A stretch of DNA of 64,000 bases from a virus (IMGVR_UViG_2802428822_000002:37398-101397), one strand, 5' to 3'. Positions 5,468 to 31,942 are shown, counted from the first letter of the stretch. Notes: generated from the letters alone by a model not told the origin. Numbers and translations: made by a program.

Positions 5468-5737
5468 TCATGCAGCGTGGCCCAGATACTTTGCATTTCG
5501 CAGCCTCAACAATCCGAGCCGCCAATTGATCCGGTAGCCAATGCCACCAGAAAGAATGGTGAAATGTCCTTGCGTGCCGACAGCAAGCAAAGCCTGCTTA
5601 ATCAAAGCAGGAGAGCATGGGGCTATAACAAATTCCCCATCTCTCTTTTTGAAAACAACCCAGTCACGCCGACCGTATCGCGATTTCCGTGCGGCGTCCT
5701 GAAAGGTGAGTGCACCTTCTTTCATCAGGCCACGCAA
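5468..5737 (-). CDS. Hypothetical protein
   Basis: ORF coupled to the upstream gene. Confidence 0.55.
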   Translation of the reverse strand: MRGLMKEGALTFQDAARKSRYGRRDWVVFKKRDGEFVIAPCSPALIKQALLAVGTQGHFTILSGGIGYRINWRLGLLRLRNAKYLGHAA

Positions 5738-13470: not shown

Positions 13471-14460
13471 ATGATGGCTGAAAGCCAACTTAGCTTATTG
13501 CAGCTTTTTGAAAAGAACGATCGTGCATCTAACGGTCTCTGTTTAGATTGTAGTGCGGCAACTCCGTTGAAGCCACCGAGTACAGTAATACACAAAAAGC
13601 GTTGTGACGAATGCGCTCGCAAATTTCGAAACCTTCGACGTGCAGAAAGGTTTCGGGAAGCCCGCTCAGGTGTGTCGATGGTAAAGCGCGGCGACATTGC
13701 TTCGAAGTTATGCGGTCGTTGCGGATGCGAATTTCGATATAAGGTCTTCAGCAGGCCACCGCGGTGGTGTGATCCCTGCCGGCCTTTGGCTGAATGCGAG
13801 GCTAAAAAGGCAGTTCGGGTTAGTTCAGATCCTGTCGATATGGCGCGAGCTGAGATCGCACGAAAAGCATCTGGCAGAGCGGATTCCTTGAAACGGAAGA
13901 AGAGAAGATCCGAATGGAGATGCCTAAAGTGCAACGATCCTGTTCCTGGTATACGAAAGAAATTCTGCTCTCCCACGTGTCAAAAGGCTTTCGAGGAGCA
14001 GCGACGGCACGAGAAAAGGCTTCAGAAGCGTGGTCTTGAACAGTGGCCGGAACTCGTTTGTGCCGAATGCGACCAAAGATTCGTAGCTCGTCCACACAGC
14101 AATCAGGATCGAAAGTTTTGCGGCCAGGACTGTGGTCATCGATGGCATCTCCGCGAGAAAACCAAACGCCGGCGTGCGAGGATGACAACGCTGGCAGTCG
14201 TAAATTTCACGGTGGATTCAATCCTCGAGCGCGACGGCTGGACATGCCAAGCGTGTTTCATCTCGACGCCTAAGTCAGTTCGCGGCACGAACGCGGCTAA
14301 CGAGCCTCACATGGATCACATCGTTCCATTGTCACGGGGTGGTGACCATGCTCCATCGAACTGCAGATGCTTATGCCGCAAGTGTAACCTAGACAAAGGT
14401 TCACTGACCGATCGGGAGTGGCAAGCCAAGAAACGAAAGCGAGAGAAGTTAGCCGCATGA
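13471..14460 (+). CDS. HNH endonuclease with multiple N-terminal Cys (zinc-binding) motifs
   Basis: Many CxxC pairs; ILERDGWTCQAC...HMDHIVPLSRGGDHAPSNCRCLCRKCNLDKG. Confidence 0.9.
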   Translation: MMAESQLSLLQLFEKNDRASNGLCLDCSAATPLKPPSTVIHKKRCDECARKFRNLRRAERFREARSGVSMVKRGDIASKLCGRCGCEFRYKVFSRPPRWCDPCRPLAECEAKKAVRVSSDPVDMARAEIARKASGRADSLKRKKRRSEWRCLKCNDPVPGIRKKFCSPTCQKAFEEQRRHEKRLQKRGLEQWPELVCAECDQRFVARPHSNQDRKFCGQDCGHRWHLREKTKRRRARMTTLAVVNFTVDSILERDGWTCQACFISTPKSVRGTNAANEPHMDHIVPLSRGGDHAPSNCRCLCRKCNLDKGSLTDREWQAKKRKREKLAA

Positions 14461-14861
14461 CAAAGAACGGACTACCGCCTCGATTTAAAATCGCGAAGCA
14501 GGCTCCGATGGCTGTTGCAGCTCAGAAAATAGCGAAAGTGGGGAGGTTCCGCGGTTCGCCGGCTGAGCGAGGATATGACGCCCGGTGGAACGCGATTAGC
14601 CTGCGTTTTAGACGTCTCAACCCTTTTTGCATGTGGTGCAGCCAGGAGGGGCGGGACACATTAACGGATCTCGTCGACCACATGATCCCCGTCCAGGATC
14701 GTCCTGATCTAATTCATGATTTCAAAAATTTATGGGCGCTCTGCACTTATCATCACGGCCGTAAATTCAGCCTCGAAGTCTATGCTCGGGACAACGGTCT
14801 GCTTCATAGGCTCCCGACCTGGTGCAAAGATCGGGATAGTCGGCCGCAGCAATTCAAATAA
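14457..14861 (+). CDS. Packaging-associated HNH endonuclease (HK97 gp74-like)
   Basis: RGYDARW...NPFCMWC...VDHMIP...NLWALCTYHH. Confidence 0.85.
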   Translation: MTKNGLPPRFKIAKQAPMAVAAQKIAKVGRFRGSPAERGYDARWNAISLRFRRLNPFCMWCSQEGRDTLTDLVDHMIPVQDRPDLIHDFKNLWALCTYHHGRKFSLEVYARDNGLLHRLPTWCKDRDSRPQQFK

Positions 14862-15081: not shown

Positions 15082-15405
15082 TCAATCCGAAAGGCTCGCA
15101 CTCTTGCGGAGTGCCGCGTTGATCCTAGACTGCCAACCTTCGCCCCCAGATTTGAAATGGTCGATGACTTCCTGGTCGAGGCGGATTGATATTGCCCTCT
15201 TCGGACGCTGTTTTGGTGCCTGGGCGGCCTCTTGGACTTTCTGTCGAGAGCCTTTGGCAGGGTCGATCAAACGCTTGCCGGCGCGCTTTGGCTTTTCCAG
15301 TTTCGTTTCGACCGCCCGCGTGCTTCGCGCGGACTTCAATTCCTCTGCGATTTCATGTGCCGACTTCAATCCACCTGACCGGCCGAGTTGTTGTGCAATC
15401 CCCAT
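15082..15405 (-). CDS. BrnA-family antitoxin / ribbon-helix-helix DNA-binding protein with no adjacent toxin
   Basis: KRAISIRLDQEVIDHFKSGGEGWQSRINAALRK; SD GGAGGAG. Confidence 0.85.
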   Translation of the reverse strand: MGIAQQLGRSGGLKSAHEIAEELKSARSTRAVETKLEKPKRAGKRLIDPAKGSRQKVQEAAQAPKQRPKRAISIRLDQEVIDHFKSGGEGWQSRINAALRKSASLSD

Positions 15406-15430: not shown

Positions 15431-15485
15431 ATTCTCATACGCATTTTATTATTGACATGCTCAGAAGAATTTGGCAATGATAGGC
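15431..15485 (+). promoter_or_regulatory. Rightward promoter with two 14-bp operator-like boxes
   Basis: TTGACA at 15452-15457, flanked by ATTCTCATACGCAT (15431-15444) and ATGCTCAGAAGAAT (15457-15470). Confidence 0.65.
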
Positions 15486-15489
15486 CATC

Positions 15490-16540
15490 CTGAGAGATCG
15501 GGACACGGTCGGTGACGGAGCGGTTCCTACGGTCACGGGATTAAGGCGCGGAACTCCGAAACGTTAGCCGCGGGCGTGCTTCAGCCATACCAAACGATAT
15601 TCGGGCTTGGCTAATTACCAAGTGTTTATCGGAGCCCCAGGCAGACAGGGTCACAAATAGCGGAAAGCCGGACTCTACGCCGGTATGCCCATGGTTCAGA
15701 TCCGGACGATCCGGCACGAGTCATGGGCGAGAAGGTTTCAGATCTCGTCCATACGCAAGACAGGGACGCGGCGGGATCATTGGGAAGGGCGAAGAGGCTA
15801 CGGGAAAGCTGTCTTGGAACCGTAGTTATCGACGTTCGACCGGGCGGAGAGCCTGGGGAGTGGGTGCAAGCCCCACATTTAGTCTCGCCCAACTGGGCAG
15901 TGATTGTGTGCCGAACGTGCGGAATGTTGAAGCCTCTGGTGGAGCAGCGCACGACAGGCCCACCCCGGCACTCCTACGGGAGGCGACACCGGGGCGCCAA
16001 CCGGACCGTCCACGATTGGGGGGGGTATTCCGGCAGACGCTAATAGGCCGGCGTGGTGTGGGTCAAATTTTGCCCGAGTGGGCATCCGAGGAGGGGGATC
16101 GGTCTTATCAGCCGATCGCGCCGGCAGGATTGATAACCTGGTGGCACCCCGCGAGAAGGGAAGGCGATACGGTAAGGTTCGTCCAGCTCAGGCTGAGTAG
16201 TTGCTCTCAGTATTCCCCAGTTCAAGGTGGGAGGCTTTCTGGTTGCTGTAACGCCTTGCCGCGGCGGGCATGGTTCGCCGAGTAGAGGAAACCAGCGCTC
16301 AATCCCGAGAGCGAGAAAGAATGGGAGGCGGGGAGTGCCGAAGATAGTTCCGCCTAAAGCTACAGTTCGGTCGCATGGTCCCGGCGTTACGGGCCAACGA
16401 ATTCGCCGAAAGGCAACGAGGTCTTGGCCCTGAACTGACAGGGTGAGTAATGGCAGAGCGGAGAGGTCTTCGATAAATCTTTTCTGCTGAGAAAGGGCGG
16501 CTGACCACTGTCCCAACGACGAAGTGTCGCTCGAAAGAGC
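15490..16540 (+). ncRNA. Long structured non-coding region (RNA array part 1)
   Basis: No credible ORF with an SD; dense hairpins with GNRA/UNCG loops and T-loop-like arms. Confidence 0.6.
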
Positions 16541-16544
16541 ATGT

Positions 16545-16606
16545 TGCAGGGTGGAGGCTCGCCAGGCTCATGGAGGCCGACGGTTCAAATCCGCCCCCTG
16601 CAACCA
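16545..16606 (+). pseudogene. tRNA-Met(CAT)-derived RNA lacking the D-loop and the 3' side of the anticodon arm
   Basis: Acceptor TGCAGGG/CCCTGCA + ACCA, T-arm with TTCAAAT loop, CCAGGCTCAT remnant. Confidence 0.7.
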
Positions 16607-16623
16607 AATTTGAAAGGACGGCA

Positions 16624-16926
16624 ATGGCGAAGAAGGGCGACTACCAGATCCCGTTTTCCTCGAAAGGTGATCAGCTTCACTACCCAGATTGGGGGCATGT
16701 GATGCTCGACAATTTCGAGTTCGAGGACACCTTGAAGTTCTCTACCATGGCGCGCGGTCGAAGCGCTGCCTACTTCTATTTCAAGCGATCGAACGGCGCG
16801 AAGGTTGTTGTCTTCATGAAAGACCTCTGCGAGATGATGCCTCACATCAACAAGGGAAAGATCACCGGGAAATTCACGTTCACCAAGCGTGGGCAGAATT
16901 ACGGCGCCATCTTCCTCGCCGCCTGA
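16624..16926 (+). CDS. Hypothetical protein embedded in the RNA array
   Basis: SD AAGGA; 100 aa with typical coding composition. Confidence 0.75.
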   Translation: MAKKGDYQIPFSSKGDQLHYPDWGHVMLDNFEFEDTLKFSTMARGRSAAYFYFKRSNGAKVVVFMKDLCEMMPHINKGKITGKFTFTKRGQNYGAIFLAA

Positions 16927-16929
16927 CTG

Positions 16930-18110
16930 AGGCCATGCCTCATATGGATGCGGTGCGCATCTCGAAAGGTGCCGACAAACCGGGAGTAGCCAGGTGCCAT
17001 GGTTCAGCCTGGAGAGGACAGCCAGCGCTGCTGAATACCGACCTTTGAATTTAGTAACCGGCACGGCGGAACCGTGCAGAGTCAGCGTCGTTCTCCAAGC
17101 GACGTGCCCTAACTGTCGGCGCCGAGCAGTGGCTCATTCGGGCAATGAATTCCGCGGAAGGCGGATCGAGGCAGGCCGGTTCAATTCCGGCTCGGTGGCT
17201 GAGATCGTGGTCGAAGGACACGGTTCAAATCCGTGACGGGCGTAAGCCTAAGACAGTGCTCCAGTTGGTGTGGAGAAGCCCGCGTGGCCCCGGCGATACG
17301 GGGCATGGAATTCGAGGCTAATGCCTCACAATTATGGGAGGCCGGAACACCAACCGGTATCGCTGTAGCTCAAGGGTAGAGCGCTGGGCCATTCCTGTGA
17401 TGCCGTGGTGGGCGGAGGAAACCAGAGGATGCCGGTTCGAATCCGGTCAGCTCCCACCAGTTCTGGAAGGCGCTTTTGCGCTGATCCGATCCCGCGATGT
17501 TGGATAGGCCATCTGACGGACGGACGATCGAGGGTAGGGCTCCGCTAGAAAGGCACCAAGTGCTGGCGGTCTATCTCCCTCTTCCAGATTCAATCGCTGG
17601 CGCCGCAATGGCGACGGCACACAGTTGCGAGGCGGACCCGGCGCGCGTTCGGGCGAGCACCAGGTTATCCGGGATTGCATGCACCCGGTCTGGCACGGCG
17701 GACTGAAGTACAGGGCGAGGTCGCGAACGGACCCTGGAAAAGGTTGAAACCCGTCTCGCATTCAGATCTCTCGCCGTCCGGCCGTATTGGCATCGCCAGT
17801 CGGGTGAAAGGTCGAGAGATGCGAGGCGGCGTGGAAGGAACACGCAGACTGTGACGAAGTACAAGTCACGGCGAACGGTGCGGCCAGGGAAGACCGCTTA
17901 AAGCGATGAAAGCCAAATAGCCGGTGTCGAGCCCGGCCCTCGCATTCAATGAACATCAAGATCGGGCGGCCTCCCGTTGCAAGAATACGGTCTGGCGAGG
18001 AGCGGCCTGATGGCCAGACCAGGTGGAACCCTGCGGCCTCCGCCATCCAACATGAACAGGAATGGAAGCAACCCAACACGGCGGGCGAGAAGACGACCGC
18101 CGGCGTAAAA
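16930..18110 (+). ncRNA. Tandem tRNA-like structured RNA modules (RNA array part 2)
   Basis: Closed modules at 17336-17459, 17462-17592, 17626-17764, 17820-17948 and 17993-18049 ending in ACCA/TTCA/TCCA; free T-arms at 17175-17191 and 17219-17235. Confidence 0.7.
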
Positions 18111-29983: not shown

Positions 29984-30057
29984 GCGGATGTAGCTTAATG
30001 GTAGAGCCACAGCCTTCCAAGCTGAGGACGTGAGTTCGATTCTCACTATCCGCTCCA
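29984..30057 (+). tRNA. tRNA-Gly (TCC)
   Basis: Full cloverleaf: GCGGATG/TATCCGC acceptor, CAGC-CTTCCAA-GCTG anticodon arm, GTGAG-TTCGATT-CTCAC T-arm, encoded CCA. Confidence 0.93.
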
Positions 30058-30368: not shown

Positions 30369-30569
30369 ATGAGCTTTGGATCTGCAGGCCTTGGGAGCGT
30401 TGGATTTGGTGCGAAGGTTGGTGCAGCCCTAGCTAAGGGCGGCGGGGTGCCTGTTGGCTACACTCTCCTCTTTGCTCGAAACCCATCCACGGGAAATTAT
30501 GAACCCGTCATGGCTCGTAATTCGCTCACCGGGAACTACGAACTCGTCGTCACAAGGATGGCAGCATGA
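30369..30569 (+). CDS. Small Gly-rich protein
   Basis: SD GGAG; ATGA overlap with the next gene. Confidence 0.6.
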   Translation: MSFGSAGLGSVGFGAKVGAALAKGGGVPVGYTLLFARNPSTGNYEPVMARNSLTGNYELVVTRMAA

Positions 30570-31942
30570 CGCTCTATATTGAAAATGTTGTCCCGACGCG
30601 CGGCCGACGGCTTGGTGTCATCGGCACATCGCTTGTCCAGCAAAATGACCTTGGGGCGACTGGCTCGAGCAACAAGGCCTCACACTCCAGCCGCGGATGG
30701 TTGTCATGGGCTCGCTTCTACGGCCAAGGCCTCTTCGATTGCCCCATCTGGTACGACCCAGGGGTCTATGTCGGTTGGGAGCCATCCGGCGTTGCCGGAA
30801 CGTCCAGACTCTTCCAGGGTCTCAATGCCGGCGTGTCCGGCCAGACTATCTCAGAGATCGACGCGCGCAAGAGCTTCTTGGTGGAGAACGTCGACTGCGA
30901 CATCGTGCTGATCGACGCAGGCACTAACGACGCAGCCAGCCTTGCCAAGGAGGTTAACCAGGCGGGCCGTGAGGCGCTAGCGGACTACTACTTGTCCTAC
31001 GGCAAGATTGTCGTCCTGCTTCCCATCCTGGCGCGGACGACTGCCCCATGGCCTGGCGGCGGAACGACTCGAGCACGTGCCAACTGGATTAACGCCAAGT
31101 CCAGGGACTTCTGTCGCACGCGCCGGAACTGCTACCACTTCGATTGGAACGAACCGTGGGTGGATGCCGCCTCACAGTACGGAACCCCCATCGCCGGCTA
31201 CACGGCCGACGGCACCCATACCGTTCCCAAGGGCGGCGAGGCGATCGGCAAGGCCCTTGTCGAGTTCCTTAAGACCATCCTGCCAGCTGGATCAAAGCGC
31301 GTCAGCTCGCCAGACGACAAGTACAGCGCGGCCGACAATCCTAGGGGAAATCTCCTGGCCAACCCGTTCCTTACCGGCACGACGGGCACCAACGGTACCG
31401 GCTCATCGGGCACGGTGGCCGACGGAATGCGGGTGGAGCGGGCGCTCGGCGCGTCTACCGTCGTCGCTTCACTCGAGGCACGGCCAAACCGTGGCTTCTG
31501 GCAGGTCATGACGATCACCCCGTCCGGCGGGGCGGAGGACAAGATCTATTTCCGGACAAACTCGGCCGATACGCCCCACTCGTTCCCCAACACGGAATGG
31601 GTGCAGGCGTCTTGCGAACTGGAAACCAACGACTACGCCGGCTTTGTGGGCGCAACCCTCGCCCTCCTAGACATGAACGGCGGTACCGCGCTCCAGTATT
31701 CTTATGGCATGGAGGTCTACAACAACGGATCGGCCAACGAGAAGTGGGCGGCACAGGCTCGCTCAGGTCTGCTGCTCACGCCTCCGATGAAGATTGCCAC
31801 AGGTTCTACCGCCCTCCGCTGGCGGTTGGAAGTGACATTCGATGCGTCCGTCGCAGGCACACCGATAGTCAAGTGCGGCGCCGTCGAGCTGCGTCCGGTG
31901 CAAGACCCACGCACGCTACTGAACTGGTCGGCTCCGATTTAA
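30566..31942 (+). CDS. SGNH/GDSL esterase fused to a beta-sandwich (carbohydrate-binding-like) domain, probably virion-associated
   Basis: GTSL (block I), NAGVSGQT, AGTND and DGTH blocks. Confidence 0.8.
   Translation: MTLYIENVVPTRGRRLGVIGTSLVQQNDLGATGSSNKASHSSRGWLSWARFYGQGLFDCPIWYDPGVYVGWEPSGVAGTSRLFQGLNAGVSGQTISEIDARKSFLVENVDCDIVLIDAGTNDAASLAKEVNQAGREALADYYLSYGKIVVLLPILARTTAPWPGGGTTRARANWINAKSRDFCRTRRNCYHFDWNEPWVDAASQYGTPIAGYTADGTHTVPKGGEAIGKALVEFLKTILPAGSKRVSSPDDKYSAADNPRGNLLANPFLTGTTGTNGTGSSGTVADGMRVERALGASTVVASLEARPNRGFWQVMTITPSGGAEDKIYFRTNSADTPHSFPNTEWVQASCELETNDYAGFVGATLALLDMNGGTALQYSYGMEVYNNGSANEKWAAQARSGLLLTPPMKIATGSTALRWRLEVTFDASVAGTPIVKCGAVELRPVQDPRTLLNWSAPI

Follow-up and report, generated by a model that had tools for sequence, protein, structure and literature searches.

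What does a phage keep in more than a kilobase of DNA that follows a strong promoter, runs up to a tRNA-derived sequence and encodes no credible protein? This question is raised by a locus in the window, as we call the whole stretch of 64,000 nucleotides that was analysed, which belongs to an IMG/VR provirus record of 101 kb. In the window, a gap of 1,218 nt without a credible gene separates a BrnA antitoxin gene, which is divergent, from P0002, a small phage gene. A preliminary description had read most of this gap (15490-16540) as a hairpin-dense non-coding RNA, either one large new RNA or further tRNA-like modules, and had named GOLLD, ROOL and OLE as families for comparison. Unless a locus or the record is named, coordinates are those of the window.

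Genomic setting of the element

To the left of the element the record carries DnaN, DnaB, methylase and SNF2-type genes, and to the right it carries large terminase, integrase and tail genes, with the integrase gene 5.7 kb from the element. No host genes were seen in the annotated parts of the record, and a blastn search of phage and plasmid collections at the DNA level found no relative of the phage. Its DnaN best matches the DnaN of Rhizobiaceae (57%). Bases 1-37400 of the record (L020, L021) encode the phage's own sliding clamp (DnaN), a DnaB helicase, a C5 cytosine methylase, an SNF2 helicase and a DUF5131 protein, a replication module that is large for a temperate phage. Farther right, a 458-aa lipase/esterase-like gene (30566-31942, + strand; phrog_6102, E 8e-54) adjoins a tRNA-Gly gene at 29984-30057.

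Immediately left of brnA lie two adjacent HNH endonuclease genes on the + strand (13471-14460 and 14418-14861). A homologue search with an HNH gene gave no relatives, and the protein encoded by 13471-14460 matches the HNH domain only of the IscB and Cas9d models, far under their cut-offs. An IscB-type guide RNA was rejected, the match to IscB being confined to the HNH domain at 28 bits against a cut-off of 175. A defence-system setting was likewise rejected, since PADLOC run on ten neighbours returned only restriction-enzyme (REase) models, on this same HNH protein, and so was a retron, DGR or Y-RNA setting, with no RT, TROVE or RtcB found in the record. Ahead of brnA, where a gene for the BrnT toxin would be expected, none is detectable, and the site is occupied by the promoter and the non-coding element. 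A degraded brnT ahead of brnA on the - strand was considered and dropped, because the - strand ORFs in 15541-15952 have no match in Pfam or PHROG.

On the other side, P0002 has relatives at four loci (L002-L005; 42-49% identical). The upstream DNA of all four is unlike the window and holds no such leader. We found no terminator-like site between the element and P0002, and the gene is probably co-transcribed with the element.

A promoter without a reading frame

The TTGACA that had been placed at 15452 was confirmed at 15452-57, and the promoter to which it belongs is of sigma-70 type (Table 1), which would put the start of a transcript near 15488. A divergent promoter-like site for brnA overlaps it. 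The earlier observation that no credible ORF follows the promoter also stood up: we tested eight ORFs and none had family support, with no match in PHROG and only two sub-threshold matches in Pfam (E 0.06 and 0.01). An ORF in the + frame at 16227-16430 has no homologue. The profile of GC by codon phase over the stretch was uninformative on coding.

Table 1. Coordinates of the element, its parts and its neighbours in the window
Feature	Position	Strand	Basis
BrnA-type antitoxin gene, left neighbour, reads away from the element	15082-15405	-	Pfam PF14384, E 8e-18
Sigma-70-like promoter, TTGACA-18-AATGAT	15452-15481	+	10/12 match to consensus
Conserved 5' block a	15484-15598	+	no difference listed in X3 over 15544-15598; X7 aligned over 15476-15540; P0003 and P0006 share the translation of 15483-15509
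5'-terminal hairpin CUGA-GAGA-UCGG, in block a	15490-15501	+	listing of tetraloop hairpins
Hypervariable segment, predicted hairpin in the window	15599-15631	+	X3 substituted at nearly every position
Conserved 5' block b	15632-15695	+	X3 aligned to 15695; substitutions at 15643, 15646, 15652 and 15654
Lineage-specific 528-nt insert	15696-16223	+	62 nt in X3; fold z -1.08
Conserved 3' block	16224-16416	+	X3, X7, X9, P0003, P0006
8-bp hairpin with two G-U pairs	16262-16280 (16262-69/16273-80)	+	only helix with a compensatory change
Variable linker	16417-16526	+	X3 rewrites 16401-16526; P0003 not similar beyond 16416
GCUC-GAAA-GAGC hairpin immediately 5' of the tRNA-like element	16527-16540	+	X3 aligns over 16527-16556, 1 difference
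Decayed copy of an initiator-type tRNA-Met	16543-16609	+	alignment with three intact phage tRNA-Met genes
Small phage gene P0002, right neighbour	16624-16926	+	phrog_22450, E 1e-30

Conserved blocks in environmental relatives

One public sequencing run, probably the source of the stretch, contains all of it and ten others contain small shares of it. Four runs (X2, X3, X7 and X9) were aligned at 80% likeness. X2 bears the same organism label as the window, has low depth and covers only 16448-16620, without a difference; it is not independent. The three runs from other sources (three of the four aligned) share a block pattern with sharp edges. The most informative is an 852-nt contig from X3, which aligns to 15544-15695, 16224-16400 and 16527-16556 and has no listed difference over 15544-15598, 15655-15695 and 16224-16306. 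In this contig 62 letters stand for the 528 nt of 15696-16223 and 123 letters for the 126 nt of 16401-16526, and 15 nt of insertions fall between 15594 and 15631. Contigs of X7 align to 15476-15540 and to 16224-16318, with five differences over the latter, and a contig of X9 has one difference over 16224-16292. X3, X7 and X9 all break exactly at 16224 and are unrelated upstream of it. The 83 identical nt of 16224-16306 are the most conserved core. No RNA run is listed among those sharing the stretch; X9 carries a metatranscriptome label, and its status as RNA is a guess.

Further relatives came from the antisense strand. A full HMMER search of 1.84 billion representatives with the 158-aa antisense ORF of the window returned one true relative, P0003 (210 aa, E 5e-17), the sole member of its 50%-identity cluster, from one 14.5-kb contig, and a word search with P0003 added P0006 (155 aa), which is carried on a contig of 10.4 kb. 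The HMMER search also gave matches in several stretches of very long proteins (P0004 and P0005). P0003 has 26 identical residues over 16224-16303, after which its alignment continues to 16414 with a 54-nt insertion, and its C-terminus matches the translation of 15450-15524, a span that takes in the -35 element and the beginning of the transcript. P0003 and P0006 each read antisense through the whole element of a relative. In these relatives the distance from the -35 element to the position equivalent to 16224 is only about 330 nt against 772 nt in the window, some 440 nt less over the same span, and they therefore represent a short form like X3. The promoter region is retained as well: at the loose end of an X7 contig before 15476 the TTGACA is kept and is followed by an 18-nt spacer of different sequence, and the antisense translations P0003 and P0006 likewise preserve the -35 element and the transcript start (the first ~25 nt). 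The 528-nt segment of the window, either a lineage-specific expansion or a disruptive insertion, has no match in any collection searched.

The blocks do not behave as a protein gene. Three indels (1, 2 and 1 nt) shorten the 3' block of X3 by a net 2 nt, and the frame in which P0003 reads the core differs from that of P0006 on the same strand, the P0006 frame being closed in the window. A conserved protein is thereby excluded. The core itself is unchanged between samples, synonymous positions included, and thus has no synonymous drift, and the adjoining residues change radically (Cys to Arg, Ile to Glu, Phe to Asp). Neither P0003 nor P0006 matches Pfam or NCBIfam. We conclude that the stretch is real and non-coding. 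The main new result of this work is conservation: two blocks of sequence recur in a small number of environmental relatives, and no reading frame stays stable across them. No more than five relatives of the element are known, and they may not all be independent. If they are close kin, as they may be, the identity of their blocks would be a product of recent ancestry and phage mosaicism and not of selection.

Rarity of the element

Exact patterns drawn from the conserved core gave no match in viral contigs, and their seven metagenome and four genome matches all had unlike flanks and are therefore taken as chance. Seven viral matches to the 5' motif were all coding and were also read as chance. 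A gapped two-motif pattern gave no match, and back-translated searches gave 46 and 102 candidate stretches, none of which was confirmed. With blastn, 401 genomes of the class of G001 yielded nothing and 401 genomes of its phylum yielded 11 short matches (24-50 nt, E 0.001-0.01), again read as chance. IMG/VR, the JGI metagenomes, phages, plasmids, the pattern-scanned GTDB representative genomes and the 802 genomes searched with blastn therefore contain no true homologue that we could find, which makes the family very rare. In the literature searched, titles and abstracts hold no description of a comparable element, which is weak evidence of its absence from print.

Folding energy and visible hairpins

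The preliminary description had pointed to many hairpins. The motifs that it quoted are where it put them: the complementary 9-mers at 15724-32 and 15883-91, the hairpin at 15860-76 and three tetraloop hairpins. The claim of an unusual density of hairpins failed. Minimum free energies (MFE) were compared with those of dinucleotide shuffles, and the stretch 15545-16540 folds no better than they do, with a z of -0.85 for the + strand, where 3 of 20 shuffles do as well, and of -0.32 for the - strand. By part, z is +0.14 for 15476-15695, -1.08 for 15696-16223 and +0.80 for 16224-16400; the core 16235-16320 taken alone gives -1.88 (7 of 200 shuffles). Hairpins closed by GNRA or UNCG loops are mildly and not significantly enriched: with stems of at least 3 bp there are 7 against 3.55 +/- 1.94 expected, a number reached in 40 of 500 shuffles, and with stems of at least 4 bp there are 4 against 1.44 +/- 1.20 (31 of 500 shuffles).

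Position tells against several of the individual motifs. The proposed long-range stem between the two 9-mers is real as complementarity, and the T-like arm at 15860-76 is real as a hairpin; like the CTCC-TACG-GGAG hairpin they lie inside the 528-nt insert. Because this segment is replaced or shortened in relatives, all three fall outside the conserved element, and the MFE structure pairs 15723-32 locally. The hairpin at 15860-76 also looks like a terminator, and one such hairpin found against 2.7 expected is within chance. Long-range pairing of the 5' with the 3' block is no better than in shuffles (66 of 200).

A motif had been noted as shared by the element and the module at 17336. The exact 11-mer GAGGAAACCAG does occur at 16285 and at 17415; 0.04 copies are expected in the window, and two copies arose in none of 100 shuffles. 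It does not extend to significant similarity between the regions: the best local alignment of the two is the 11-mer alone, with a score of 22, which 52 of 1000 shuffles and 90 of 1540 other windows also attain. A shared module joining 16239-16296 to the insert of the tRNA-like gene (17385-17425) was attractive by eye and was dropped as not significant.

Comparative evidence on a possible folded core

The test of structure used the differences listed in the aligned contigs together with the positions fixed by the residues of P0003 and P0006 (back-translated), and the helices that it judged were single-sequence predictions. The hairpin at 16262-16280 is where a compensatory change was found. In P0006, C16265 is replaced by A and G16277, its predicted partner, by T, which turns a C-G into an A-U pair. 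Of five definite changes that P0006 has in the 95-nt core, three are located in this 19-nt hairpin; another change there, T16275 to A, has a partner position that is unreadable. The G-U pairs of the hairpin work on the + strand only.

Other helices gave mixed results. Two one-sided changes of P0003 in the helix 16366-71/16405-10, C16368 to T and T16371 to C, keep the pairing, and the 54-nt insertion of P0003 sits apical to this helix. In the hairpin 16296-16313, C16312 to T (X3 and X7) turns G-C into G-U, the other changes there being in the loop. P0003 disrupts the closing helix 16235-40/16314-19, which in X3 is shortened or broken; P0006 breaks 15484-86/15545-47 and the end of 15487-92/15536-41, and C15652 to A in X3 breaks a predicted pair. 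Altogether, one pair is compensated and three one-sided changes leave pairing intact; at least four changes disrupt it. We estimate about one chance in ten that the compensatory pair, which is read from a back-translated protein, arose by luck, and the predicted helices as a whole lean no more than tentatively towards structure in the 3' core.

A tRNA-derived 3' end

The alternative offered in the preliminary description, a row of further tRNA-like modules within 15490-16540, found no tRNA-clan match at E<=10. The sole tRNA-derived piece lies just outside these coordinates, at 16543-16609. Its last 25 nt (16585-16609) match the 3' ends of three intact phage tRNA-Met genes without a difference. 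Deletions have removed 10 nt from the D-loop and 5 nt from the 3' half of the anticodon arm, and the acceptor stem, the T arm with its GGTTCAAATCC loop and the 3' CCA are retained, with a 9-bp acceptor helix in the fold (z -1.85). As a complete cloverleaf it is called neither by ARAGORN nor by the Rfam tRNA model RF00005. The retained half is the part of a tRNA that is recognised by RNase P and the CCA-adding enzyme. At the same place in X3, the loose end past 16556 carries an intact initiator-tRNA D-loop. In the window and in X3 alike, the element is linked with a tRNA of initiator type.

Several other tRNA-like sequences lie nearby. An odd tRNA-like gene at 17336-17457 (+ strand) scores 38.5 bits with the Rfam tRNA model over 17362-17451; 34 nt replace the nine central anticodon-arm positions of the model, and inspection by eye suggests that the 5' strand of the acceptor (GGGAG ... 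GCTG) is interrupted by a 21-nt hairpin. This gene ends in CCACCA, is uncalled by ARAGORN and has a fold z of -2.15. Two lone T-arm-like hairpins (17175-17191 and 17219-17235, + strand, 44 nt apart), with weak tmRNA/T-arm matches, sit in a second ORF-free stretch past P0002 (16927-17360), and a fifth T-loop-like 14-mer is found at 15691-15704, on the edge of the variable insert. Among the relatives of P0002, L003 has at 5641-5725 an 85-nt match to the tRNA model (42.9 bits, uncalled by ARAGORN), about 280 nt upstream of its P0002 homologue.

Comparison with known RNAs

We scanned three ranges with Rfam release 15, at the gathering score and, on 3 kb and on 1,076 nt alone, at E<=10. GOLLD (which we take to be RF01998 and to be present in the library), ROOL (presumably RF03087) and OLE had been the suggested kin. 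No family matches within 15470-16545, even at E<=10, so that by model the element is not GOLLD, ROOL, OLE, an intron, RNase P RNA, tmRNA or a row of tRNA-like units. ARAGORN called only the tRNA-Gly at 29984 and no tmRNA; the tmRNA model RF00023 gave only the 17-nt T-arm at 17175-17191, at 12.6 bits against a threshold of 47.

The comparison with these RNAs is instructive all the same. In the published account, GOLLD and ROOL are phage- or prophage-encoded and often lie near tRNA islands, one studied GOLLD adjoins a Met-tRNA, GOLLD is several hundred nt long with a universally conserved 3' region, a less conserved 5' region and a function that is unknown, and ROOL has no known protein partner (10.1101/2024.12.08.627333). 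Our element resembles GOLLD in its phage or prophage location (terminase and integrase in the record), in its place beside a tRNA-Met-derived sequence, in a length of several hundred nt and in combining conserved with variable parts, and ROOL in its phage or prophage setting near a tRNA. It differs from both in having no covariance-model match. Unlike GOLLD as described there, it has both ends conserved and the middle variable, and it has no excess folding stability; compared with ROOL it is far rarer in public data.

Two other systems invite comparison. The tRNA-like modules of MALAT1/mascRNA and of plant-virus RNA ends serve 3' processing in eukaryotic or RNA-virus systems. The likeness is that of a long non-coding transcript ending in a tRNA-like fold, with a possible RNase P site defining its 3' end; the module here is a decayed real initiator tRNA, intact in a relative, and its cleavage is putative. 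T4-type phage tRNA clusters are promoter-driven precursors with tRNA and other stable RNA that are matured by host RNases. Compared with these, the non-tRNA part of our element is far longer (0.6-1.05 kb).

Interpretation and alternatives

We tentatively read the stretch as a non-coding RNA gene from a small and so far undescribed family of tRNA-linked phage RNAs, at a probability of about 0.45. The observations behind this reading are the promoter match, the non-coding character of the DNA, the conservation in blocks, the tRNA linkage and one compensatory pair. The earlier idea of one large new RNA fits the promoter, the frame-free conserved blocks and the tRNA at the 3' end, whereas its structural arguments fail. 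Transcription of the + strand would start near 15488 from the sigma-70-type promoter. A conserved 5' part would reach to 15695 and be followed by a middle that can expand (528 nt here and about 60-110 nt in relatives) and by the conserved 3' part (16224-16416), after which the transcript would continue by way of the variable linker into the initiator-type tRNA. In this prophage the tRNA has shrunk to an acceptor/T-arm 'top half' with an encoded CCA, its decoding half being lost. RNase P may cut at the 5' side of the tRNA-like element (~16543) and so free the upstream RNA, which would be about 1,055 nt long here and about 600 nt in the short form. The conserved blocks would be its working part, perhaps a folded core or binding platform that acts, possibly in trans, in an early or lysogenic programme. 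Speaking against this reading, neither the whole stretch nor either conserved block has a thermodynamic signal. The present copy may itself be decaying, because its linked tRNA is damaged and its insert carries the terminator-like hairpin (at chance level).

It is unlikely that the stretch is instead a long 5' leader or spacer of an operon of the tRNA and P0002, in which the promoter, the processing signals and the tRNA matter and the remainder is filler. The promoter and the tRNA are indeed the parts of clearest meaning, no terminator-like site separates the element from P0002, there is no excess of folding energy, and the length of the middle is highly variable (528 against 62 nt). Filler would, however, hardly keep 83, 55 and 41 nt identical across samples beside segments that are wholly replaced; the compensatory pair also argues against it, as do the four relatives of P0002 that lack any such leader.

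Decaying, non-functional DNA, the remnant of a gene or tRNA in a mosaic early region whose shared blocks reflect recent descent and recombination, is quite unlikely. It would suit the two internal deletions of the adjacent tRNA copy, the two HNH homing-type endonuclease genes just upstream, the T-arm fragments and the odd tRNA-like gene just downstream, the rarity of the element in all collections searched and the missing folding signal. Decay does not explain why the -35 element, the spacer length and the transcript start are kept in more distant relatives despite a diverged spacer, or why all relatives break at identical coordinates, and no remnant of a protein or tRNA is detectable within the stretch.

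We regard as highly unlikely a role at the level of DNA, as a platform for recombination, replication or repression beside a tRNA-type attachment site. The element adjoins tRNA-derived sequence and has the integrase gene to its right, and a compensatory change in a palindrome fits a DNA inverted repeat as well. Yet the tRNA copy has its 5' half both here and in X3, so the DNA upstream belongs to the transcription unit of the tRNA itself and is no scar of integration. No internal repeats or iterons were found in the stretch and no att-type repeats elsewhere in the record, the 101 kb of which hold no second copy of the tRNA end, and the supported hairpin requires G-U pairs.

An antisense protein gene like that of P0003 (~210 aa, ahead of brnA on the - strand), broken here by the 528-nt insertion, is very improbable. 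Its attraction is that a 210-aa ORF is open across the whole element of a relative, that the 158-aa ORF of the window shares 49 of 82 residues with P0003 and that the 54-nt length difference between them is in frame. It is contradicted by P0006, which reads the core in another frame that is closed in the window, and by the net loss of 2 nt within the block of X3; such a protein would moreover form one single-member 50%-identity cluster among 1.84 billion representatives, lack any Pfam or NCBIfam match, be rich in Pro, Arg, Gly, Cys and Trp and change radically outside the identical core.

A highly divergent GOLLD or ROOL missed by the Rfam models is barely credible, since the shared setting (a phage, a Met-type tRNA neighbour, several hundred nt and a conserved 3' part) is offset by the absence of any Rfam family at E<=10 on 1,076 nt, even at the laxest filter setting, and by the different layout, with both ends conserved and the middle variable.

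The non-coding RNA gene that we favour can be taken further. The element would then found a new class, that of large phage RNAs linked to tRNAs, with a two-part core that tolerates an expansion of ~60 to more than 500 nt, release by RNase P at a tRNA top half and a folded scaffold, possibly multimeric in the manner of the homo-oligomeric nanocages of GOLLD and ROOL, that acts on the host's translation or tRNA machinery. We consider this extended proposal unlikely.

To our knowledge, the large phage non-coding RNAs found beside tRNA genes, such as GOLLD and ROOL, are among the least understood RNAs, and few classes of them are known. Should the stretch prove to be filler or decaying DNA, it would serve as a caution that a GC-rich, ORF-free kilobase of phage DNA with tetraloops visible to the eye can fold like its shuffles. 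If the reading as a non-coding RNA is true, the element would provide a natural example of a decayed tRNA retained as a processing module, and would add another class, unrelated in sequence, whose natural short and long forms would offer a new handle on function.
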